DNA of 64,000 nucleotides, taken from positions 13,231-77,230 of the forward strand of contig CAIJLV010000103.1 in the NCBI GenBank assembly GCA_903821635.1, read 5' to 3'. The position numbers and the translations under genes were made by a program. The stretch's first letter is position 1; every line of letters starts with the position of its first letter. The stretch is from an uncultured Verrucomicrobiota bacterium (GTDB lineage Bacteria > Verrucomicrobiota > Verrucomicrobiia > Limisphaerales > UBA9464). Below are positions 1,659 through 64,000 of this stretch, one piece after another. The notes below the pieces were generated by a model, which ran no database searches, had not been told where the DNA came from, and saw only the letters and a list, made by a program, of their open reading frames with translations.

Positions 1659-3263
1659 TTAGCGGGCGCTGGCTCCCATCGAGAGCAGGAACATGATGTT
1701 GTTCGGCGTCTTCTTGAGTTTGCCGAGCAGGAGTTCCATGGATTCGACCGGCGGCACCCCCACCAAGGCTCGGCGGAGAACCGAGATGCGGGGATATTCG
1801 TCGGGGTGATAGAGCAGTTCCTCTTTGCGAGTGCCCGAGCGCTCGATGTTGATGGAGGGGAAGATGCGGCGATCCACCAGCGCGCGGTCCAGATGGATTT
1901 CCATGTTACCGGTGCCCTTGAACTCTTCGAAGATGACTTCATCCATGCGACTGCCGGTGTCGACCAAGGCCGTGGCCATGATCGTCAGGGAACCGCCTTC
2001 TTCGATGTTACGCGCCGCGCCGAAGAAACGCTTGGGTTTGTGCAGCGCGTTGGCGTCGACACCGCCGGAAAGAATCTTGCCCGAGTGGGGTTGCACCGTG
2101 TTGTAGGCGCGGGCCAAGCGGGTGATGGAATCGAGCAGAATGACGACGTCCTTCTTGTGCTCGACCATGCGGCGGGCTTTTTCGATCACCATTTCGGCCA
2201 CTTGCACATGGCGCTCTGGTGGTTCGTCGAAGGTCGAGCTCACCACTTCGGCCCCTTTGCAGGAGCGTTCCATGTCAGTGACTTCCTCGGGCCGTTCGTC
2301 GATCAGCAGGATGATGAGGTGGCTCTCGGGGCTATTCTTCAGGATCGCGTTGGCGAGCTTCTGCATCAGCACCGTCTTGCCGGTGCGCGGTGGCGCCACG
2401 ATCAAACCGCGCGTGCCCTTGCCGATGGGGCAGACGATGTCCACGACCCGGGTGCTGAGCTCGTCGGGCGTGGTTTCGAGGAGGAAACGCCGGTTCGGGA
2501 ACAGCGGCGTCAGGTTCTCGAAGTGCGTCTTCTCCTTGGCGAGATCAGGGTCCACCCCCGCGACGCGTTCGACGCGCAGGAGGGCGTAGAATTTTTCTTT
2601 GTCCTTGGGGGGGCGCACTTGGCCTTCGACGTCGTCGCCGGTCTGGAGGTCAAACCGGCGGATCTGCGACGGCGACACATAAATGTCTTCGGGGCAGGGC
2701 AGGTAGTTGAACGCGGGCGAACGGAGGAAGCCGAAGCCCTCGCTCATCACTTCGAGCGTGCCGCGAATAAAGATCGTGCCCCCGGCCTTTAGGTTGCGCT
2801 GGACGATCTGGAAGATGATCTCCTGCCGCTTGAGTGTGCCGTAGTTCTCAATGCCGAATTCCTTCGCCACCTCGGCGAGTTGGATGATGGGCATCGGCTG
2901 TAACTCATGCAGGTTCAGCGACCGCGGCTGGACGATGAACTCGGGCTGGGGCGGGGAGTAGTCGATGTCTTCCGCGACCGGCTCCGGGTCGGGCTCAGGC
3001 GGACGCTGACGCCGCAGGACTGGTTCGGGCTCGGGTTCCGGCTCCGGCTCAGGTTCCGGCTCCGGCGTGGGCTGGAGTGAGAACTCGGCCGGTTCGGCGG
3101 TCGGTTCGGAAGCGGTGGAAGCCGTTTCAGCGACGGTAATCGTCGCTGCGGTGTCTTCGGCTGCCTCGACGGCAGATTCAAAGAGCTCGGGCGCGGCTTT
3201 GGCGGCCTTCTTCTTGGCCACTTTTTTCTTGGGAGCCGCGGGGTCTTTCGGTGCGCGTGCCAT
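1659..3263 (-). CDS. rho: Transcription termination factor Rho with a long N-terminal low-complexity extension
   Basis: Walker A PPRTGKT, the RNA-binding and ATPase core ([13 protein letters not shown]...[15 protein letters not shown]...[13 protein letters not shown]) and the C-terminus are all present. I place the start at the internal ATG 3263 (MARAPKDP...). The 614-aa track ORF starting at 3503 would overlap gatB and its upstream region. Confidence 0.93.
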
Positions 3264-3496
3264 AAAACTAAAGCTGGATGCATGACACGCCGGGGCGACC
3301 CTTGCTCCTGCGAATGGAAAGCGCCTATGCGCAACAGAAATCACCAGGGGAAAGTAATGGTGTATCTGGGGGGAGGTTCCCGGACGTGCTACGGCCGCAA
3401 CATGGCGAGGAAGCGGGCGTGTGCAAGGCCGATTTTTGATAATGGCCCCGGTATTCGCTTGGGGATTTGAACTAGGTTTGGCTTCTAGCGGCGCCC

Positions 3497-4966
3497 GTGG
3501 CACAACCAGCGTCCGACATGGAATACGAAGCGGTCATCGGCCTCGAAACGCACGTCCAGCTCAAGACGAAGTCCAAGATGTGGTGCGGTTGTCCCAACGC
3601 GTTTGGGGCGGATCCCAACACCAACGTCTGTCCGATTTGCCTAGGCATGCCCGGCGTGCTGCCCGTGGCCAACGCCGAGGCGTTGCGCCTCACCGTGCTC
3701 ACGGGTTACCTGCTCAACTGCGAGATTCCCCGCTTCGCCAAATTCGACCGCAAAAACTACTTCTACCCGGATTCAGCCAAGAATTACCAGGTCACCCAAT
3801 ACGACAAGCCCAGCACCGCCCGAGGCTGGGTCGACTTTGAGTTCAGCGGTCTCGGGGCCGGCACCGGACCCGATGGGCTGACCCGGGTGCGCATCACCCG
3901 CGCCCACTTGGAAGAAGACGTGGGCAAAAACAACCATTTCGACCGGCACAGCGGCGTGGATTTCAACCGCGGCGGCGTGCCGTTGTTGGAAATCGTCTCC
4001 GAACCCGACCTCCGCGGCCCGGAGCACGCCTACACCTACCTCAAGGCGCTCACCGACATTCTCGTGCGGGGCGGCATCAGCGACTGCGACATGGAGAAGG
4101 GGATGGTTCGCTGCGACGTGAACGTCTCCGTGCGACCCAAAGGCACCGAGCCGCTCGGGGCCAAGATCGAGATCAAGAACATGAACTCATTTTCCGGGGT
4201 TCGGCGGGCGCTGGAATACGAAATCCCGCGCCAGATTGCCGCCGTTCAACGCGGGGAAACGCTGCGGCAGGAAACCCGGCGCTGGGATGACGTCGCCGGC
4301 ATCACCGAGCCGATGCGTTCCAAGGAAGATGCCCACGACTACCGCTATCTGCCGGAGCCCGACCTGATGCCGTTCTGCCCGACCGACGAATGGCTCGCCG
4401 AAATCCGGGCGGGCGTGCCCGAACTCCCATTGCCGCGCAAACTGCGGTTGGTGCGCGAGTTTGGCTTGCCGGCCGGCGACGCTCAGGTGTTGAGCGACAA
4501 CCTCCCGCTCGGTCAATTCTTCGAACTGGCGGCGGCTGGCTTCCAGCAACCGAAGGCGATCGCCAACTGGGTCATCAACACCTTGGCGGCGAAATTGGCG
4601 GAATCCGCGGGCGCGGTCGGCGACTTGAAGTTTGCCCCCGCCGAACTCCGCCAACTCGTCGAACTCGTTGATGGCGGCAAGATCAGCCTCAAGATGGCGC
4701 AGGAGGTGTTTGCGGAGATGTTTGCCAGCGGCGAAAAGCCGGGCGTCATCGTCGAAAAGCGCGGCCTTGCCCAAGTCAGCGACACCGGCGCCATCGAAAA
4801 ACTCTGCGAGGAAGCCATCGCAGCCAATCCCGGCGCCGTGGCCGACTACCGGAGTGGGAAGGTGGCCGCGCTCAATTCGCTCAAAGGCCAGGTCATGAAG
4901 CTGTCCAAGGGCAAAGCCAACCCGGCCGTCGTTGGCGACTTGTTGGCGCAGAAATTGGCGGTGTAA
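3497..4966 (+). CDS. gatB: Asp-tRNA(Asn)/Glu-tRNA(Gln) amidotransferase subunit B
   Basis: [50 protein letters not shown] and a GatB/YqeY C-terminal domain. The start is either GTG 3497 or ATG 3518. Confidence 0.93.
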
Positions 4967-33242: not shown

Positions 33243-36200
33243 TCAGGGGGCGGTGACTCGCACCCATGCGGAAGCGCCACTGACCGGCACGGAAACCGTC
33301 TTCGTCGCGCCGTCGCCGGCGAAGGTCTGGACGGGAGTCCAGACCGGGAGGTTGATGTTCTCCGCTTGTTCCACCCGGTAGCTGACCCCTTTGACCGTGG
33401 GCAGACTGAACTGGAGTGCTCCGCCTGCCGCGGCGAACTGGGCGAGCGTGATGGGACCGGGTTCGGGATTACCGCCCGTGGTCACGGTCAGCGCCACCGG
33501 CGCAGCGCGCACACTGCCGCCGCCGATGCCCGAGACGAGGGCGACATAATTGCCGCTGTTGACGGGTTGGGCGTTCGTAAATTCGAGCACTGAGTTGGTC
33601 TGACCCGCCAAGGTTACGCCCTCCTTGAGCCAAGTGTAGCGGTATTGAGTGAACCCGGTGGCCGCGACCGAGAATCTCGCGGTGCCGCCAGCGGCCACCG
33701 AAACCGACGTCGGCGACTGCGTGAGGATCGGCACCACTGAGACGCTGACGGCGTTGGTCACCGCGCCGGCCGCATTGCCCACGACGACGTCGTAGGCACC
33801 GTGTTCATTGGTGGTGACTTGGTTCAGCGTCAGGGCACTGCCGGTTGCGTCGGCGAGAGGCAACCTAGCTTTGCGCCATTGGTAAGTCAGTGGGCCGGTG
33901 CCGGCGGCAATGACGCTCAACGTGGTCGAACCGCCGATGGGCACCGTGACGACCGCCGCGGGCAGAATGCCAAACCCGAGCGGCCGCGTCGGTGCCGCCG
34001 TCAGCGTCAACAACGCCGGGGCACTGGTGACCGAACCGCGGGCGTTGGACAGCACGACGTCGTAGTGGCCGAGATCCTTGGCCGCCGGGGAATACACGGT
34101 GAACACCGACTGGGTTGCCCCCATCACCGGTTGGCCGGCGTGGCGCCACTGGTAAGCGAGCGGACCTTCGCCGGTGGCGGCCACCGAGAACACCGCTGGC
34201 ACCGTGGCCGGTCCGGTCACGGGGCGGGGTTGGGCGAGGAGGCGCGGCGCGCCGGTGGTGGCTTCACCGAAACAGCCATAGACGCCGATCAGGCCATCCT
34301 GAAATTCCACGCCCACGGTCACGTCATTGCCCTGCGCCTCGACGTCGAAGAAGCGTTTCACGCGCCGGCAGTCGATGACCGACCCGGTGTTGGCGACCAC
34401 TTCCGTTATTCCATCGGTCCAGCGCGTGACGCTGCCCGAATTACCGAAGTAAACCTGCCGCGGGCCGCCCGCGACGAGAAAGTCGCCGTTGCCTAACACG
34501 CGGGCGGTGCCATCCGCCTCAAAGGCCACGATCCGGTTCTGCGTGCTGACAGAGACGCGGATCCCCACCACGGCGAAGACGAGTCCGCCCTCCACGTCCA
34601 CGTCGCCGAACGTCATCACGGCGTTCGTCAGACCGGGCAAGGTGTCCCCGGAATCCAGCAGTTTGGTGACCTCGACTTCGGGGGTGGCGCGATACACGCC
34701 CCCTTGGCCGGCGAGTCCTTCCATCGTGGAAAAAACCACCGTCGCGCCGTCGAAGTTAACCGAATCCTCCGTCAACCGGCCGCCGTAGCCGGTCATGACG
34801 CCGGGCAGGTCGGTGGTGTTGTCGGCGAGGCGGGTGAGGGTGGTGCCTCGACGCAGATACACGCCCGCGCCGGCCCCGGAGCCGTCGGCTTGGCGCAGGG
34901 TGGCGCTGATGACGACCCCGTCACCCCGCCGGGCAAAAGAGCCGGGCCCGGAGAACGTGACCCCGGGGCGCCCCGGCGCCGGCGTGTTGGTGGTGATCAC
35001 GGCGGTGAGGAGGCCGTTGCGCCGTTCATACATTTCGTGGAACGCGAAGTTCACCGCGCCGTCGCCTTCGTCGGTTGGGTAAAACGGGTAGCTGAAGTTC
35101 TCGCCCGGTTGGCCGCCGGGCACGGCGTCGTTGGTGAACACAAGCGGCGTCACCACGCCGTCCCGCCAGCGCAGCAGCGTGGTTTGGAACGTGGGTTTGT
35201 CTGCGAGATTGTCGTCTGCCCGGGCCGTGGCGTGAACGGTCTGGTTCCACAGCGTGAAGGTCGGTTCGAACGGCGTCTTGAACGGCCCCAGTCGATTCGC
35301 CGTTCCGGGTAGGGGGTCTTCCGTGGCGAAGAGTTTTATCCAAGGCCGGCCGTTGAACGTGCTGTCGAGGGCCACGGCGCAAACCTCCAACCGGGCGGGT
35401 GCACTGAGCACTTGTCCGGCGTTGTTTTGGATCGCCACGCTCCAAACTCCGGCCTGCGTGGCGGTGACATTCGTAAGTGTGATCGTGGGGGCGTTGGCGC
35501 GGCCGGAGCGGAGGCCGTTGAAGAACCACTCGTAGTTCAGCTCCGCGCCCGTCACCGCGACGTTGAAGGTCACGGAATCTCCCTCCAAGACTCGCGCCGG
35601 CAAGGGCTGCGCGGAGATCATCGGCGGGTTGAGGAGGGCCACGGTGGCGACCGCGCTGGTGATTGATCCCAGCGGATTGGAAACCGTGACGCGGTAGTCG
35701 CCCACGTTGGTCGCGCCGATCGGACCGAGGGCCAGCGTGCGCTGGTTGGCGCCGGCCAGCGGCGCACCTCCTTTGAACCACTGGTAGGCCAGTTCAAAGC
35801 CGGCGACCCCGACCGAAAGCGTCGGCGAATTGCCCGCAGTCACGTTGAGGTCGGCGAGATCTTGCCAGAGTCGCGGGGCGATGTTTGGACCCGCGCTGAG
35901 TTCGAACGGCCCGGCGAACTGCTGCGTGCCCGGCACCGAGCTGAGCGTGACGTCCAGCGCGTAGGTGCCGCGGGTCGGAGTGGCGAACGTCAGTCGGTAG
36001 CGGTTGGTGATCCAAAACGGGGTCGCGCCGAACTGGTCGGTCGAGCTGAGCGTCAGCACCGCTTGGTCTGGCCCCACGCCAGCGCGGGTATAGTCCGCCC
36101 GGTTGGTTTTGTAGGTCGGTCCTTCGACTCGGCCGTCGGCCAGCAACCGCGCCGCGTCAATAAAGCCGTTGGGGGCGGTGCGCACGAACACGCGGTTGGC

Positions 36201-58700: not shown

Positions 58701-59954
58701 GCCAAACGCGAGCACCCCGAAGTCGTCCCAAGTGGTGCCGTCGAAGGTCAATTCTTCCAGCGGACTCGGCCGAGCATCGCCGCGCGGTGCTTTGAGTTTC
58801 AGTTCCGGAACTCGGTTCGGTTGCACCTCGAAGACGAATTGCGCCGGCAGTTTGTTGGTGCGCCCGTCCGCATCCACCAACTGCAATTCGTAACTGGCGC
58901 TGGCCCTCAAGGGCAGCGGCCCCAGCGCCACGGCCGGTCGGTTGGTCTCGATGCGCAGCGCCAGATTCGTCACGCCGGCTTGGCGGCCGACCAGCGTCGC
59001 GGCGACGACCGGTTTATTGAGCTGCAGGGAAAGGCCGAGTTGCGAACCCTCGACCGCCGTGACGCGTCGGGTGTCCTCAATGTGTTTTGGCGGCAGCCCG
59101 GTGTAAGCCGGGTAAGTTAGGTCGGCGTCGGAACGCTCCAACCGCGGATATTCGAAGACGGTGACGCGGTAGTCGCGCGTGCGTTTGCCGGCGTAGGCGA
59201 TGTGATAGGCAAAACTGTCGTTGAGATCGGGCACGGTCACGCCGAACACCGGGTCCCCGAGACTGCGCACCAGCGGCAGGCGTCGGGCGGTCGCCGCGTT
59301 GGTGCCGAGGACGAGTTCGGCCGACTCCGGCGCGCCGGCCCCGAAACGCACCAGGACGACCAAGGTGGAGCCGCGCTCTAGGGTGCTGTCGCCCGGCGTG
59401 ACTTCGAGTCCGGTGTTCCGCGTGACGAGCACGGGCGCACCCGGCTTGAACGGCAACCGCCCCGCCCACAGCGCGCCGGCCAGCAAGGCCAAGGCGAGCC
59501 ACTGTCCCGCGTGGGCGAGGGCGAATTGGCGGGTCGGAATGGCGCGGCGCCAATCGCTCCGCAAGCTGCGTTCCGCGGCCTCCTCGACGACGCGTTCAGC
59601 CAGAAAGTTCAGCCTGCCCTCGGCTCCTCGGTGAATCTGGGTGGCGGTGAGTAACAGGCCGTCCAGCTCCGGATGACTCCGCTCGATTTCAGCCACCAGC
59701 GCGCCGAAGTCGGAAGGCGCAGATCGGTGCCGCCACACCACGATCACGGCGCCCAATAAGGCACCCGCGGTCAGAAGCGGGAACAACCAGGGCGAACCGA
59801 CGCCCACCAGCCGAGAGAGTCCAACCACGGCGCCCACGGCCAACGCGGCGGCGGCCCAATAACCGGCGAGCCGGCGCCAGAGTTGGAGCCGGCGCCGACG
59901 GCGCAGCACGCTTTGCAGGCGGACCTGCAAGAGGGTTTCCATCATCGTTTTCAT
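55767..59954 (-). CDS. Giant DUF4175-like membrane protein: N-terminal TM pair, beta-rich ectodomain, Q/E/R-rich coiled coil, G/Q/P-rich low-complexity region
   Basis: 1395 aa. The N-terminus RRRRRLQLWRRLAGYWAAAALAVGAVVGL is followed by a second TM. LTYPAYTGLPPK is the type of segment seen in TIGR02302/DUF4175 proteins. The heptad-rich region is long (LQ..L..L..QL). The C-terminus is IDRDPVPARYSELVRRYYEELG. The start ATG at 59954 overlaps the upstream stop (ATGA). Confidence 0.55.
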   Translation of the reverse strand: MKTMMETLLQVRLQSVLRRRRRLQLWRRLAGYWAAAALAVGAVVGLSRLVGVGSPWLFPLLTAGALLGAVIVVWRHRSAPSDFGALVAEIERSHPELDGLLLTATQIHRGAEGRLNFLAERVVEEAAERSLRSDWRRAIPTRQFALAHAGQWLALALLAGALWAGRLPFKPGAPVLVTRNTGLEVTPGDSTLERGSTLVVLVRFGAGAPESAELVLGTNAATARRLPLVRSLGDPVFGVTVPDLNDSFAYHIAYAGKRTRDYRVTVFEYPRLERSDADLTYPAYTGLPPKHIEDTRRVTAVEGSQLGLSLQLNKPVVAATLVGRQAGVTNLALRIETNRPAVALGPLPLRASASYELQLVDADGRTNKLPAQFVFEVQPNRVPELKLKAPRGDARPSPLEELTFDGTTWDDFGVLAFGLAFSVGGGEPTLVELGRSVPAQETRALAHTLRLEELGLQPDQLVAWFVWADDYGPDGEIRRTNGDLFFGEIRPFEEIFREGEQMGGSGGEPGEESGGGNPTTKLAELQKQIINATWKLQRQEGAKPKTSQPSDSKAAPGAKKPTTFWRGKEPGRPRPTDRSRLLASAGVAFSSGGRAGNPQAPAAVPATASEMNTHASEHFAPPSAFHLPPSPQVIFGQRAAADSEPRAEGNNAPARRLQALVDGQAKKTSSGGYEADVTVVHDAMTEAVSQAEAARERQQDPALASLWTTAIEQLNDALAKLAQAKSSPAQLGTALKAQQSAYEALLKVRDREFQVTRGQKGAAPGSGAGEQMRQMQLEQLDLAQADNRYESQPQAQAAQNPQRREEQQVLNRLRELAQRQEDLNERLKELQTALQAAKAEPEKDELRRQLKRLQEEQRQMLADTDELQQRMERPENQQKMAEQKQQLEQTREDLQRASEAANQGNMSQALSAGTRAQRQLQELRDELRKQNSSGLSEEMRQLRAEARDLARREEEIAKQLADLEQNKQRTLADNGERQKLADQLGQQRQRLTNLVNQAAQLSEQAEATEPLVARQLYDSIRKLTQDDGAALKQTQEELIQRGTLTRGLFENLQNLAKDEHGKALGSAEAVLREGFLPPAREAERRARATLDQLRKGVDKATENVLGDDTEALRLAEKELEALANQLEREFGPGGAGQAGDRGTNQVAGGQSGQAREGQPGGSRTNTTARAGDGQPGSEPQPSPAGQQGAGERPGNQQAKADQPAPKGQPGAGQQPSEQAGQPAGPQPGQTQGQQGQQPGQGGRGNRPQPANNQRGQRGGLDLRSLDPTLANDGGGTEGQGSRGGPITGGDFAEWSDRLRDVEEMVDQPDLRTEVSSARERARLMRQDFKRERTKPDWVTVQLQVVKPLVEVRQKLQEELARRDVKDSLVPIDRDPVPARYSELVRRYYEELGKDK

Positions 59955-62050
59955 GCGGTTGCCTCCGTCGGAAGTGCGCGGCGGGCAGTCCAGCCGGCCA
60001 GCGCGGTTTCGATCAACAGAACCAAAAGGGTGGCCAGCAGGAACCAGCGCCAGAGCTTTTGCCGCGACTCGGACTCAGCCGCCTGCAATTGCGTTTTGCG
60101 GAGGGCGCTCGCCGGCGCCGCGGCCAGCGGGTTGGCCGTTCCGATGCCGTAAGTCTCAAAGACATCGGCCGACCAGGGCGCGGTCCGGCTTTCGTTGGGG
60201 TCCAGATTCACCGCAAACCATTGCGGTGCCCCGCCGCCCTCGACGCGATAAAAACCGGGCTGGGTGGTGCCGGTGAAATTGGTGGCGCCGGCGGCCAGTG
60301 CCACCGAAGTCCCATCCGGCAGCATGACCTGCTGGCCGCCCGCCCGCAGTGCCAACGGCTCGCCGACGAGGGGTTGCGCCGGGGCCAGACCTGCCGTTGC
60401 GCCGGCGTAGTCGAGTAGGGAAAGGAGCAGCGGCACGAACTTCGTCGAGAGCGCGAGTTGGCTGTCTTCAGGCTGCCAGCCCGTGGTTAAAATGATCACG
60501 CGCCCGCGCCCCACCGGCACTTCAGCGAGGGCCGGACTGCCGGAATCAAACCGTGCCAGCACCCGTGCGCTGGGCACGGACGCCCAGTCGAGGACGCGGT
60601 GTTTCCACACGTGAATCTTGGTGAAATCGCTGAAGCGGGGGTCGGCAAACGGCGCGAACAACGGATGCTCGAAGTCCAGTTCGGCTAACATCGCATAATT
60701 CTTCACGGTCGCCTCGCGCAGCGGCAGGGCCGCGACGCCCAGCAGCGTCGCGAGTGGGGCGCCGGCGGCGGCGTTGACCGGCGCAAAAAGGATCGTCTTG
60801 CCGGCGAGCGCCGCTTCCCGCAGCAGCCCGGCTGTCGGGGCGGAGAGGGCGCCCGTGACCAGCACGAGCCCCGCTGCGGCGACGTCGCCGGCACTGAGTG
60901 CGGCTTGGCCGGTGCGGGCATCCAGCGTGACGCGTTGCCGGGGGGAATCCGGCAAGGCCCGCCGCAAAAAGAAGAGCGGTTGGCGAGCGTCGCCCGCGGC
61001 GTCGGCGCCGAGGTAAAGCACGCGCAAGGTCGTCGGTTCAGGCGGAATCACGTAGGCTACATTGTCAAAAGGTTCGTCGTCACCGCGTAACTGAACCCGT
61101 CGCGTGGGGGGCACGCCGGGGGCCGCCGGGGGCGGCAGCGGCAAGGCGACGACGCGACTCTGGCCGGGCGGCACATACACGTCGGAGGCCGGCCCGACGA
61201 ACGTGTCGCCGGCCTCGGCCCAACCGACTTGGAACTGCTCTTGGGTCGCTTCCGGCGCGTTGCTGACGCGCACCCGCACGGCGGAATTGGTGAGACTGGT
61301 GTCCGCGGCCTCCGCGACGATTTGGACGCCAGCGTTGCCGGGGGACTTGGCCTTTAACGGGGGCACCAGCAGTTGAAGATTCTTCGGCCAGTCGTAGGCC
61401 TGAAGTTTTTCCAGCCGGCCGCCTTCCTGCACGTCGCTGAGGAGCACAATCTGGCGCAGCGGGGTGGCTTGTTGGACTTCAGCTTCGGTCACCATTTCGG
61501 CGGCGGCAATCAAGGTCGTGCCGAGTTGCGTGGCACCCCAGCCGGGCTTGAGCGCCTCCAGTTTGCCCCGGGCCAAGGCGGCGCGGTCGCCCGGGGGCGC
61601 GGCTTGCCAGTCTTCAAAAGAGACGAGGCGGTTCACCTCGTGATCGAAGGCGAGCACGGCCACTTGGTCGCCGGGCGTCGTGTGGCCCAAGATGTCTGCG
61701 GCCTGCGCGAGAGCGGCGGACCAGAGTCCGGCGCGTTGCATGGAAGCGCTGCGGTCCACGAGCACCACGAGTCGGCGGGGTTGGCCGGAAACGGGTTCGG
61801 CGACCGAGGGATTTTTCAGAAACGGGCGGGCAAAACCGAAGGTGAGCAACGCCAGCGCGAGGCAACGCAACAGCAGGAGCAGGAGGTCTTCGAGCCGGCT
61901 GCGTTTCGTGAGGCGCGGCGGCGTGGGCGACAGAAACAGCAACGAACTGAACGGTAACCGTTCACGCGTGCGCCGCCGGATCAGGTGCAACACCACGGGC
62001 AGCGCCAGCGCCAACGCCCCGAACAGAAAGGCGGGGGTGAGAAAATTCAT
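59951..62050 (-). CDS. BatA N-terminal domain plus VWA-like domain membrane protein
   Basis: MNFLTPAFLFGALALALPVVLHLIRRRTRERLPFSSLLFL is the aerotolerance-regulator BatA_N pattern. A second TM follows. VVLVDRSASM is a DxSxS MIDAS-like motif. The C-terminal TM is WRWFLLATLLVLLIETALAGW. GGAGGG lies 8 nt upstream of the ATG. Confidence 0.75.
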   Translation of the reverse strand: MNFLTPAFLFGALALALPVVLHLIRRRTRERLPFSSLLFLSPTPPRLTKRSRLEDLLLLLLRCLALALLTFGFARPFLKNPSVAEPVSGQPRRLVVLVDRSASMQRAGLWSAALAQAADILGHTTPGDQVAVLAFDHEVNRLVSFEDWQAAPPGDRAALARGKLEALKPGWGATQLGTTLIAAAEMVTEAEVQQATPLRQIVLLSDVQEGGRLEKLQAYDWPKNLQLLVPPLKAKSPGNAGVQIVAEAADTSLTNSAVRVRVSNAPEATQEQFQVGWAEAGDTFVGPASDVYVPPGQSRVVALPLPPPAAPGVPPTRRVQLRGDDEPFDNVAYVIPPEPTTLRVLYLGADAAGDARQPLFFLRRALPDSPRQRVTLDARTGQAALSAGDVAAAGLVLVTGALSAPTAGLLREAALAGKTILFAPVNAAAGAPLATLLGVAALPLREATVKNYAMLAELDFEHPLFAPFADPRFSDFTKIHVWKHRVLDWASVPSARVLARFDSGSPALAEVPVGRGRVIILTTGWQPEDSQLALSTKFVPLLLSLLDYAGATAGLAPAQPLVGEPLALRAGGQQVMLPDGTSVALAAGATNFTGTTQPGFYRVEGGGAPQWFAVNLDPNESRTAPWSADVFETYGIGTANPLAAAPASALRKTQLQAAESESRQKLWRWFLLATLLVLLIETALAGWTARRALPTEATA

Positions 62051-62162
62051 GGGCTAACCCTCCGACAAAGGCGTTGCTGAATTGGGAAAACCGGAAAACC
62101 TAAAGGCGGACTGGGTTGCCAATGGCTGCCCGATTGTCGGCCTGCCTGATTCAGTTCGTGAT

Positions 62163-63104
62163 TCATCGGCTCCCCCCGTTTCGTGCCCGAGCGACGTGGC
62201 GGCGTTGGGTCCGTTCGCGCAGGAAGTCAAACAGGGCGAGTTCGAGCGGTTGATCGGTGGTCAACCGGTGGCAGTGCGCGCCCAGCTTCTGGCACAGGTC
62301 CCGCACGGCTTGGCAATGGGCCTCCAGCTTTTGGATGTAACTGGTGCGCACGGCCTGCGGATCAACGAACAGCGTGCGGCCGGATTCGAGGTCCTCGAAC
62401 AGGGTCGGTTGGTCGAAGCCGAAGTTCAGCTCGGCGGGATCGAGCACTTGGAAGACGGTCAGTTCATGCCCGGCCGCGGCGAGGGTCGTGAGGCAGCGGT
62501 CGAGGTTTTCGAGCGGCGTGAGGAAGTCCGAAACCAACACCAGAAGGCCCCGCTTGCGGACGATTTCCGCGACCCGTCGCAGCGGCGTAACGAGGTCGGT
62601 CGCAGTTCCCCCGGCGGGCTGCTCCAGCGCGAGCATCAGGTGCCGCAGGTGGCCGGGGCGATGGCGGGCGGGGAGGTATTCGCGCACGCCGGCGTCGAAG
62701 GAGAGCAGGCCGATGGCGTCGCCTTGCTGATGGAGAAACCAGGCGAGCGTGGCGCTGAGCGTGGCGGCGTATTGCGCCTTGGTGACACCGGCCGAGGCGA
62801 AGTCCATGGATCGGCTCTGGTCTACGATCAGGTGGCAGCGGAGGTTCGTTTCGTCCTCGAATTTTTTGATGTAAAAGCGGTCGCTGCGGCCGAACACGCG
62901 CCAGTCCACGTAGCGCGGATCGTCGCCCGGCGTGTATTGGCGATACTCGGTGAACTCGACGGAGAAGCCGTGATAGGGACTGCGATGGATGCCACTCCAG
63001 AAGCCCTCGACGACGGCACGCGCCCGCAACTCAAGGTTGCGGATGTTCATCAACGCCTTCGGGTCGATGAACTTCGTCGCGGGGTTGGTGGTGGAGGCGG
63101 TCAT
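62163..63104 (-). CDS. DUF58 domain-containing protein (MoxR-associated, VWA-like)
   Basis: GIHRSPYHGFSVEFTEYRQYTPGDDPRYVDWRVFGRSDRFYIKKFEDETNLRCHLIVDQSRSM is the canonical DUF58 core. The start is set at ATG 63104, because upstream of it the track ORF reads through a repeat element. Confidence 0.88.
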   Translation of the reverse strand: MTASTTNPATKFIDPKALMNIRNLELRARAVVEGFWSGIHRSPYHGFSVEFTEYRQYTPGDDPRYVDWRVFGRSDRFYIKKFEDETNLRCHLIVDQSRSMDFASAGVTKAQYAATLSATLAWFLHQQGDAIGLLSFDAGVREYLPARHRPGHLRHLMLALEQPAGGTATDLVTPLRRVAEIVRKRGLLVLVSDFLTPLENLDRCLTTLAAAGHELTVFQVLDPAELNFGFDQPTLFEDLESGRTLFVDPQAVRTSYIQKLEAHCQAVRDLCQKLGAHCHRLTTDQPLELALFDFLRERTQRRHVARARNGGSR

Positions 63105-63154
63105 CGGGTGGAGGCGGAACGTGGACCAAGAATTGGGGAAGGAGAATTGATGAC

Positions 63155-63357
63155 GCCCGCCCTCACCCCGGCCCTCTCCCCCAAGGAGAGGGAGCCGCCC
63201 GCTGGCGCAGAACAACTCCACAAACTGGGCTGACGAAGACTGTTTCGGGTTCGCCGAGGAGTGCCCGGGCTGAATCGGAGCCCGCAGCTTTGGAACGAGC
63301 ATGGACGCCGTGACCTTCTCCCTCTCCCCGGGGGAGAGGGTTGGGGTGAGGGCGGGC
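63155..63357. mobile_element. MITE-like 203-bp element bounded by about 27-bp terminal inverted repeats, each containing a GC-rich hairpin
   Basis: The left end is gcccgccctcaccccggccctctcccc (63155-63181). The right end is ggggagagggttggggtgagggcgggc (63331-63357), whose reverse complement matches the left end at 25/27. Local palindromes are CCCTCTCC...GGAGAGGG at 63172-63192 and 63320-63340. Confidence 0.55.
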
Positions 63358-63403
63358 CACCTTCCATCTTTTCAACCGCCCCGACCTTTGCCACACCGTC
63401 CAC

Positions 63404-63853
63404 ATGAATTTGCGCCCACTTGCCCGGCAATTGCGCCAGCGCGAGACGTGGGCAGAACGCCTGGTGTGGCGCTGGCTGCGCGACCGGCGTTTCGAGGGCT
63501 ACAAGTTTCGCCGGCAAATCCCCAAGGGTGACTTCATCGTGGACTTTGTCTGCGAGGAAGCCGCGCTGGTCATCGAACTGCATGGCAGCCAGCACGGGTT
63601 CCCCGAGCACCAGGCTCGGGATGCGGCCAAGGACGCTTATCTCACCAGCATGGGATTCAAGACATTGCGCTTCTGGAACGGCGAGTTGCGTCGGCGCGAG
63701 GCGGAAATCAAGGAGACCATCTTTCGGGAACTTCACGCGCGGGCGCCGCATCCTGAGCCTTCGTATTGGCGAAGCGGCATGGTTGGAAAGAAGTTTGAGG
63801 ACTCCCGACCTCACCCCAACCCTCTCCCCCGGGGAGAGGGGGACGCCCGCTGA
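63404..63853 (+). CDS. DUF559 domain (Vsr-like / restriction-endonuclease-fold) protein
   Basis: ARQLRQRETWAERLVWRWLRDRRFEGYKFRRQIPKGDFIVDFVCEEAALVIELHGSQH...LTSMGFKTLRFWNGEL is the DUF559 pattern. The last 13 codons (RPHPNPLPRGEGDAR) are encoded by repeat unit 3. Confidence 0.8.
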   Translation: MNLRPLARQLRQRETWAERLVWRWLRDRRFEGYKFRRQIPKGDFIVDFVCEEAALVIELHGSQHGFPEHQARDAAKDAYLTSMGFKTLRFWNGELRRREAEIKETIFRELHARAPHPEPSYWRSGMVGKKFEDSRPHPNPLPRGEGDAR

Positions 63854-63900
63854 CGCGCCGTTACTCAACAGGCCTGACTGACGAGGACTGCGAAGGGTGA
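63804..63900 (+). repeat. Repeat unit 3 (hairpin) plus truncated repeat core
   Basis: cccgacctcaccccaaccctctcccccggggagaggg (63804-63840), then cgcccgctg-N27-gacgaggactg (63844-63890). It has the same architecture and orientation as the unit at 63155-63251. Confidence 0.6.
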
Positions 63901-64000
63901 CGCCGGCGCCAACGAGGGACGCCCGCAATCCTAGATAGCGGAGGCTCATCAACGCCTTTGGGTCGATGAACTTCGTCGCGGGGTTGGGGTTGGGGGCGGT
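63900..64000 (-). pseudogene. Diverged partial duplicate of the DUF58 gene 5-prime end, running off the window
   Basis: It aligns without gaps to 63001-63101 at an offset of 899 bp, with 47/51 identity over 63950-64000. It translates to TAPNPNPATKFIDPKALMSLRYLGLRASLVGAG, compared with TASTTNPATKFIDPKALMNIRNLELRARAVVEG in the intact gene. Confidence 0.5.

Follow-up and report, generated by a model that had tools for sequence, protein, structure and literature searches.

The DUF559 gene and its repeat units

We analysed a 64,000-nucleotide (nt) stretch of DNA from a Verrucomicrobiota lineage (hereafter the window), in which a gene of the DUF559 family is enclosed by two inverted copies of a hairpin-forming repeat unit. 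The gene is an open reading frame (ORF) of 149 amino acids (aa) at 63404..63853 on the plus strand, with its stop codon at 63851-63853, and encodes a YcjD-family protein with a predicted Vsr fold (Pfam PF04480; Protein Data Bank (PDB) 3HRL). The arms of the bracketing inverted repeat, at 63317-63356 and 63804-63843, are 40 nt long, 95% complementary and 447 nt apart; the downstream one falls within the final 50 nt of the ORF. A sequence-only reading of the window had proposed that gene-facing inverted repeats enclose the ORF and that the upstream repeat doubles as one end of a 203-bp element. Both proposals hold: the upstream arm also pairs with 63155-63194 (40 nt, 90% complementary), which defines that element.

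Three repeat units, all described here on the plus strand, make up this arrangement, and they share a three-block design of CCCTCTCCCC, a short loop, the complement GGGGAGAGGG, then TT or CCG, and finally the mirror block GGGGTGAGGG. Unit 1 (63155..63194), which has a CCG second loop (type B-like), forms the left end of the 203-bp element. Unit 2 (63318..63357) consists of a CCCTCTCCCC/GGGGAGAGGG hairpin, TT and the mirror block GGGGTGAGGG toward the gene, and serves both as the left arm of the bracket and as the right end of the 203-bp element. Unit 3 (63804..63843), which reads CCTCACCCC, AA and hairpin, is the right, gene-facing arm inside the 3′ end of the ORF. The G-rich GGGGTGAGGG and C-rich CCTCACCCC third blocks of the bracket therefore point inward to the DUF559 gene. 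Because units 2 and 3 are of the TT type and unit 1 is of the CCG type, the 203-bp element is a mixed doublet. The Watson–Crick hairpins of the units were computed at about -10 kcal/mol.

A search of the window for the pattern CCCTCTCC-N3-8-GGAGAGGG returned 3 matches against 0.00 expected in shuffled sequence, and a generic scan for pyrimidine-stem hairpins found the same three sites, all at the DUF559 locus. Single-mismatch matches to GGGGTGAGGG at 34831, 34918 and 53296 were rejected as units, being ordinary coding sequence.

The 203-bp doublet (E1; 63155..63357, without assigned strand) comprises two outward-facing units and a 123-nt inner segment that holds the conserved motif ACTCCACA...CTGACGA.GAC, and copies of it occur in three orthologous loci (L001, L002 and L028 of the comparison set introduced below). 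As single-stranded DNA, E1 is predicted to fold into one long hairpin (-66.6 kcal/mol, z -6.95). Downstream of unit 3, the start of a truncated second doublet (the left inner part of E2; 63844..63898, plus strand) is homologous to 63195-63242, and direct similarity between 63137-63242 and 63785-63890 amounts to 75%. E2 is complete in L002 and L028, which also carry a fifth unit; the complete second doublet and the fifth unit are absent from the window. The third blocks of E1 face outward and those of the gene cassette face inward, so the gene lies between units of an alternating array. This orientation corrects one part of the sequence-only reading, in that the cassette is not simply a longer, cargo-carrying version of the small element; the other part, that short gene-less derivatives exist, is borne out by doublets that vary among close relatives.

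The units are BoxC-type repeats

By its sequence, the window unit is a member of the BoxC/PIT/TM repeats, the last name referring to an intrastrand-triplex motif. The earlier reading had recognized a real repeat and left it unnamed; the BoxC copy downstream of Escherichia coli ycjD, GGGGAGAGGGTTAGGGTGAGGGG, has its counterpart here in GGGGAGAGGGTTGGGGTGAGGG. The likeness covers an essentially identical sequence, the succession of pyrimidine, purine and mirror purine blocks, the TT(A) and CCG loops, the occurrence as single units and inverted mixed-type pairs, and the location at unstable loci. BoxC and PIT repeats were reportedly treated by Bergler in 1992 and Hoyne in 2000. To our knowledge, BoxC has been an orphan since the early 1990s, with neither a function nor a mobilizing enzyme assigned to it.

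E. coli K-12 carries 23 BoxC/TM copies, and more than 260 genomes contain the motif (Holder et al. 2015, PMC4666352). The same study described two loop-2 types, TTA and CCG, which pair in inverted doublets, found that the E. coli motif forms a triplex in vitro and that local genome variability is raised at TM motifs, and never found transposases or integrases associated with them (PMC4666352). Published copies are orphan intergenic repeats, whereas the units described here consistently bracket a DUF559 gene; the window units differ further in their Verrucomicrobiota host and in pairing to form doublets of about 200 bp with a conserved inner segment.

An Rfam scan of the locus returned no family at gathering score. 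The whalefall-1 model (RF01762) matched 63159-63194 on the minus strand with 22.8 bits, below its threshold of 37. Its consensus has a CUCUCC/GGAGAG hairpin followed downstream by AGGGUGAGGA, which amounts to the three-block design, but the model places a 24-nt insert between the blocks and was described as a metagenome RNA. As an aside, the hairpin-plus-GGGUGAGG design raises the possibility that this 'RNA motif' and the BoxC DNA repeat are related. Rfam matches resembling microRNAs were rejected as hairpin artefacts.

In E. coli K-12, a BoxC copy lies about 190 bp downstream of ycjD and a degenerate unit lies at the ycjD 3′ end. The final ~60 nt of ycjD recur in part (GGAGACGGTGCTGGAGAATATTC...) in the spacer between ycjD and fabI (NC_000913.3; L108 2700-2960), where the order is the partial ycjD 3′ copy, a degenerate unit-like sequence and the complete BoxC. 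The fabI (envM) region is where BoxC was reportedly first described.

Repeat units adjoin DUF559 genes across phyla

We collected DUF559 loci by protein similarity only, 23 from species genomes and 80 from metagenomes. An inverted repeat spanning the ORF with a score of at least 18 was present in 45 of 70 loci, compared with 1 of 184 displaced windows from the same loci, and the median inverted-repeat score was 21.5 at DUF559 and 9 in the displaced controls. A perfect pyrimidine-stem hairpin adjoins the ORF in 99 of 102 loci from several phyla. Hairpin density reaches 2.82 per kb beside the ORF against 0.255 per kb elsewhere in the loci (11 times higher), with peaks 0-200 nt upstream of the ORF and at the ORF end. 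About 80% of the hairpins carry the mirror third block, compared with about 1% when the flanks are shuffled. The third blocks of the units closest to the gene point toward it from both sides in 35 loci, and away from it in 2. Flanking of DUF559 by gene-facing units, for which the sequence-only reading had asked as a test, is found well beyond the window, and within these loci the units are concentrated at the gene. The refuting conditions named in that reading were examined, and none of them speaks against the association.

This association spans hosts in which the repeat itself has diverged: in Alphaproteobacteria, Deinococcus and Meiothermus the unit sequences differ and the hairpin and mirror block are kept. 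In about a third of the loci, a further unit upstream makes up an outward-facing doublet like that of the window. The arrays, which alternate in orientation, comprise 35 outward gene-less pairs, 13 inward gene-less pairs and 35 inward pairs with a gene. E. coli ycjD, as noted, also adjoins BoxC. A query restricted to the DUF559 core retrieved 19,648 relatives (clusters at 50% identity) from 1.8 billion representative proteins; among the 98 best anchor-bearing homologues, 32 contained translated BoxC peptides in their extensions, compared with 1 when the extensions were shuffled. In two loci, DUF559 has premature stops and is probably a pseudogene, and the units still flank it (L020 3001-3159; L022 3001-3129).

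These controls bear on the explanation that GC-rich palindromes have come to lie beside the gene by chance. Beyond the high G+C content of the genome (65%), nothing speaks for it; it is refuted by the shuffles and the displaced windows, and all three hairpins of the 64 kb lie at the DUF559 gene, which leaves chance a negligible probability.

A second explanation is that the units are cis-acting signals of the gene (a terminator, an insulator or an mRNA-stabilizing hairpin) or an on/off switch for programmed inversion. DUF559 proteins are 14-fold enriched among predicted programmed-inversion targets, an enrichment left unexplained in that study (PMC9881135). The stability of the hairpins would suit such a role, as would the enrichment, yet the BoxC brackets probably account for the latter, and the gene points the same way at each of the four orthologous loci (the window, L001, L002 and L028). 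PIT elements are reported to have neither promoter nor terminator activity, in work of the Maher laboratory (cited in PMC4666352). No T-tract follows the hairpins, no sigma-70-like promoter was found in the leader between unit 2 and the ATG (46 nt, 63358..63403, plus strand; well conserved among the orthologous copies), and the promoter and terminator scan yielded nothing beyond what chance would give. Cis signalling or inversion would also leave the gene-less dispersed copies of the repeat unexplained, and we consider it very unlikely.

Three long predicted proteins (P0191, P0192 and P0214) consist of a DUF559 core and translated BoxC that reads through into sequence resembling the specificity subunits of type I restriction systems (HsdS). 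Some DUF559 cassettes may thus lie within hsdS loci, and this could have some relation to the enrichment among inversion targets.

The DUF559 protein is conserved in its core

The window protein matches Pfam PF04480 over profile positions 3-108 of 109 (E 1.3e-33; 115.6 bits, cut-off 20.6), and its closest solved structure is 3HRL from N. gonorrhoeae (E 9e-34). The next structural match is the catalytic domain of the homing endonuclease I-Bth0305I (PDB 3R3P; E 0.007). With 93.6 bits against a cut-off of 218 for the YcjD equivalog model (NCBIfam NF007294), the protein is a YcjD relative and not an equivalog. It shows no match to the Y1_Tnp transposase models (PF01797 / NF047646). PADLOC assigned no defence system to the locus, giving only a weak nuclease-domain match to DpdF (25.5 bits) with no partner genes. 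An exact-sequence look-up of the protein returned no record, and a single-sequence AlphaFold model was unusable (mean predicted local distance difference test, pLDDT, 50.7).

Of the putative active site, the protein keeps Asp47, Glu58, His64 and RFWN. The sequence-only reading had named an E-[LIV]-D-G motif for the family, from which this copy (VIELHGSQH) would depart; the motif is correct: Asp60 is nearly invariant in our family alignment (A1) and His occurs in the window copy alone (codon CAT, 63581-63583, plus strand), the orthologues in L001, L002 and L028 all having Asp at this position. An hhalign comparison with E. coli Vsr gave a weak alignment (probability 21%, E 1e-3), in which Asp47 falls opposite Asp51, the catalytic residue of Vsr, and the family Asp60 opposite Vsr His64. 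Since Vsr has His at the position aligned, albeit weakly, with residue 60, the window His60 cannot be called inactivating, and the change from Asp to His may leave the protein active. Vsr, YcjD and 3HRL share with the window protein the fold, the Asp of 'DF', the metal-site position of 'E-L-D/H-G', the His that follows and 'RFWN' against 'VW'. Unlike Vsr, DUF559 has no adjacent cytosine methyltransferase: none lies next to the gene, where the neighbours encode DUF58, BatA, a 108-aa membrane protein and MoxR. We know of no function for either YcjD or 3HRL.

Selection differs between the two parts of the ORF. Among the four orthologous copies, for which synonymous divergence (dS) is about 0.5 in most pairs, the ratio of non-synonymous to synonymous divergence (dN/dS) is 0.02-0.09 in the core domain (63404-63739, plus strand) and 0.4-0.9, with one pair at 3.2, in the C-terminal tail that reads into unit 3 (63740-63853, plus strand). 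Judged by these ratios, the core is under strong purifying selection and is kept as a working gene, and the unit-encoded tail behaves as sequence constrained as DNA and neutral as protein.

The window copy is old and vertically inherited

The gene and its units sit at the 5′ end of a DUF58 gene (62163..63104, minus strand; Pfam DUF58, E 1.6e-48), the target of the insertion, in an operon encoding a MoxR AAA ATPase, a 108-aa membrane protein, DUF58 and a BatA-like VWA protein (window 59951-63104, minus strand, together with L001 3597-4982; context taken from L001, L024, L025 and L027). At the empty sites in L025 and L026, the start codon of DUF58 and the stop codon of the small gene before it share bases (ATGA); the much closer L024 has the same overlap, with nothing between the small gene and DUF58. 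The window, L001, L002 and L028 instead hold about 815 bp of foreign DNA and a second copy of the first 84 nt of DUF58. In the window, the functional copy of this duplicated 5′ coding sequence (X; 63021..63104, minus strand) ends at a CGCAAC-N5-GTTGCG hairpin, the duplication spanning the DUF58 ATG to this small hairpin, CGCAACCTCGAGTTGCG. The other copy (X′; 63899..64000, minus strand), a relic of DUF58 coding sequence (its first ~84-105 nt) that runs off the window end, is the original DUF58 5′ end, still joined to the upstream operon; in L001 its end is an ATG overlapping with the stop codon of the 108-aa gene upstream. Identity between the two copies amounts to 93% in L001 (84 nt) and to 79% in the window. 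The insertion cuts DUF58 and the downstream genes off from the upstream part of the Bat/MoxR operon. The DUF58 start codon is separated from unit 1 by new sequence (63105..63154, without assigned strand) that is variable among the orthologues and presumably now supplies the expression signals of DUF58.

The presence or absence of the cassette among close relatives, whose comparison the sequence-only reading had called for, might have been read as a sign of new insertion. A tree of the flanking genes (1,343-1,451 nt) argues the opposite, because in it the empty L024 and the filled L002 are sisters (3.9% divergence, 100% bootstrap), and this pair is nested in a filled clade whose members are 12-18% divergent. 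The empty site therefore represents a precise secondary loss, and the insertion is old; a recent insertion in the other loci was rejected on the same grounds. The loss is most simply explained by recombination between the 84-nt direct repeats. Given this pattern and the purifying selection on its core, the window copy resembles an old, vertically inherited, resident or domesticated gene more than an actively jumping one.

The doublets turn over among the same close relatives. A gene-less doublet of about 190 bp (L001 1490-1685), which carries the inner motif of the 203-bp element, occupies the DUF58-BatA spacer in L001 with about 170 bp of extra sequence beside it, and is absent from that spacer in the window (62050-62163), L002 and L024.

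Cassettes elsewhere bear signs of mobility

For several pairs of loci, homology (76-92% nucleotide identity) is confined to the cassette and the flanks are unrelated; between L082 and L106 its limits coincide exactly with the outer bases of both hairpins. In three loci with unrelated flanks (L065 2417-2903, L048 ~270-760 and L100 ~700-1190), the unit-DUF559-unit cassette lies inside a 27-bp terminal inverted repeat, GGTTCTTTCTCAAATTGAGTGGGTAA, bordered by 8-bp AT-rich target duplications (AATATTAT, ATTTTTAT and AGTTTGTA). By their structure, these termini are a true transposition footprint. A scan of the loci for the 27-bp repeat gave matches in L048 and L065 and in no further locus. The sequence-only reading, which had envisaged a selfish, perhaps transposing or homing, module, finds partial support; the footprint of the L065 group and the unrelated flanks agree with it, and the window locus, which lacks such a footprint and is old and vertically inherited, does not.

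The L065 group also brings in the possibility that DUF559 is passive cargo and that the repeats are moved by host replication and recombination or by an unrelated transposase. Its 27-bp terminal repeats and 8-bp duplications are typical of DDE transposases, the order E1-DUF559-E2 sets the gene between two direct copies of about 200 bp in the manner of a composite transposon, and the window junctions suggest template switching or recombination (GCAAC microhomology and the 84-nt duplication). But passive carriage would leave unexplained why DUF559 is the trapped gene every time, in different phyla and between units of differing sequence, and why orientation and spacing are uniform and purifying selection is strong. 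We therefore regard cargo as an improbable account of the association.

In E. coli, ycjD is present as a single copy in 3378 of 5426 complete genomes, and the ratio of one ycjD to 23 BoxC in K-12 resembles that of RAYT to REP (a REP-associated tyrosine transposase and its repetitive extragenic palindromic sequences). ycjD sits where other E. coli phylogroups carry eefRABCD (PMC12817139).

Single-copy occurrence bears on a further reading, in which DUF559 is a free-standing gene of the homing-endonuclease type that parasitizes BoxC arrays: the enzyme would cut between inward-facing units and its gene would be copied into the break through recombination of the flanking repeats, BoxC itself spreading by other means. 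Such behaviour would fit the constant position of the gene between inward-facing units, with the 13 gene-less inward pairs as possible empty targets, as well as the cassettes in unrelated contexts and the premature stops in L020 and L022, which are typical of homing-gene decay; I-Bth0305I (3R3P) is, moreover, the nearest functionally characterized structural relative. Set against this are the single-copy state, vertical inheritance and strong purifying selection, here and in E. coli, and the shortness of the ~40-nt flanking units for homology-driven copying (although the doublets do offer ~200 nt). Two spacers, moreover, show no significant resemblance to the cassette: a gene-less inward spacer (L028 1474-1551) aligned locally to it with a score of 21, compared with a mean of 16 and a maximum of 25 in shuffles, and the gene-less spacer of L021 likewise has no significant similarity to it. 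The L028 spacer was accordingly rejected as a deleted cassette. Homing remains, in our estimate, an unlikely explanation, if one with definite points in its favour.

A possible gene–repeat partnership

We propose that the locus is a gene–repeat partnership of the REP/RAYT kind built on a Vsr-fold nuclease, a reading of the comparisons above to which we give even chances. The module would consist of a YcjD-family DUF559 gene, encoding a Vsr-fold PD-(D/E)XK nuclease, between two inward-facing BoxC/PIT/TM units. Each unit has pyrimidine, purine and mirror purine blocks (Y-R-R′), and units of this kind are reported to adopt a hairpin plus an intrastrand triplex; they make up alternating arrays as well as doublets of ~200 bp. 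As the cognate nicking nuclease, structure-specific in its action, the DUF559 protein would recognize folded BoxC, most likely on single-stranded or supercoiled DNA, and recognition would drive the copying, rearrangement or maintenance of BoxC, with the gene retained, usually as a single copy, between two units. The window copy is an old ~815-bp insertion into the 5′ end of DUF58, accompanied by the 84-nt duplication, which restored that gene. The comparisons show the association, its orientation and its spread across phyla, the persistence of the three-block design, the turnover of gene-less units and doublets, the unrelated contexts of the cassette and purifying selection on the gene, and it is from these that nuclease activity, recognition of the unit and a copying mechanism are inferred. 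We advance more tentatively, and as somewhat doubtful, the broader claim that BoxC is the cognate substrate of YcjD-family nucleases and that the pair forms a second REP/RAYT-like replicator, evolutionarily independent, of the Vsr fold and recognizing a triplex.

The likeness to REP sequences, their hairpin-forming doublets (REPINs) and RAYT genes extends to several features. In both cases a single gene is flanked by inverted hairpin repeats, and the repeats also occur as singles, as inverted doublets that form long hairpins, and as alternating arrays like those of bacterial interspersed mosaic elements (BIMEs). Both have a low-copy gene with vertical inheritance and purifying selection. The differences lie in the enzyme, which has a Vsr-like PD-(D/E)XK fold (a predicted nuclease) and not an HUH/Y1 fold, and in the unit, which has a third, triplex-capable mirror block; given its different fold, the DUF559 module is not a member of the RAYT family. 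The two systems meet at one site. In a more distant relative whose DUF58 protein is 73% identical (L027 2760-4010; JGI 3300060285, Ga0590115_0000065), a genuine RAYT gene (2967-3782, minus strand; NF047646, 84.5 bits, cut-off 80) and REP hairpins occupy the same DUF58 insertion point, and the RAYT gene is preceded by a decayed DUF58 5′ copy starting at ATGA (~2767-2822). Two systems of repeat plus nuclease therefore share an insertion point and a kind of duplication. The point may be an insertion hot spot or else an ancient landing pad that has exchanged its content.

Other mobile elements offer partial parallels. I-Bth0305I has a distantly related catalytic domain and is part of a selfish element, but its gene lies in a group I intron of a phage and its DNA-binding region is separate, whereas DUF559 has neither an intron nor a defined target site. 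Miniature inverted-repeat transposable elements and small insertion sequences, such as Correia elements, likewise have inverted terminal units around a short segment and gene-less derivatives, and L065, L048 and L100 have the true terminal repeats and target duplications expected of them. The window locus differs in having no recognized transposase and in its junctions, which lie outside the units.

Several points weigh against a partnership. The link between DUF559 and BoxC comes from sequence comparison. The query used for the metagenomes included the unit-encoded tail, so the downstream unit is biased, the upstream signal and the core-restricted protein search being unaffected, and the association counts hairpins per DUF559 locus rather than the share of all BoxC units that lie near DUF559. 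Compared with the empty L024, L025 and L026, the inserted DNA in the window runs ~50-65 nt past the outer units, which are therefore not the ends of the insertion, and the locus has no short target duplication, only the 84-nt duplication of coding sequence. About 38% of E. coli genomes lack ycjD, and BoxC is reported from strains across E. coli (PMC4666352), so the units persist without the gene. The mechanism itself meets a further difficulty, in that we know of no PD-(D/E)XK nuclease that transposes on its own. The one clear transposition footprint, that of the L065 group, uses additional outer terminal repeats; these look ISL3-like, which would point to another enzyme.

In the searchable literature, outside which most subscription papers lie, we found no report linking DUF559 to BoxC repeats; BoxC and DUF559 are each known, and the link between them appears to be new. 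BoxC/PIT/TM repeats are abundant, strikingly conserved across phyla and tied to local genome instability, and DUF559 is a very large family without an assigned role, among whose members are E. coli YcjD and a protein of solved structure. If the two are partners, both orphans gain a functional hypothesis, and a second 'resident nuclease plus dispersed hairpin repeat' lifestyle would exist beside REP/RAYT, based on another enzyme fold and on an unusual DNA structure. E. coli K-12, with its one ycjD and 23 BoxC copies, offers a direct test.

Further observations on individual loci

L002 (JBIIUN010000130.1) and L004 (JBIIUN010000035.1) come from a metagenome-assembled genome labelled Candidatus Kapaibacterium. 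Synteny of L002 with the Verrucomicrobiota locus, at 81-89% nucleotide identity, makes it probable that this bin carries a wrong label or is a mixture. The DUF559 copies of these two loci are flanked by different unit subtypes (GCCCGCCCTCACCCC and TTTCCCCTCACCCC, respectively). In Polaromonas sp. CG9_12 (L015 2874-2945), the inner segment of the upstream doublet is taken up by a (GCAAGA)n microsatellite with ~12 repeats. The cassette in L005 is surrounded by unrelated repeats of ~106 bp, one on the left and two in tandem on the right (2639-2766 and 3683-3883).

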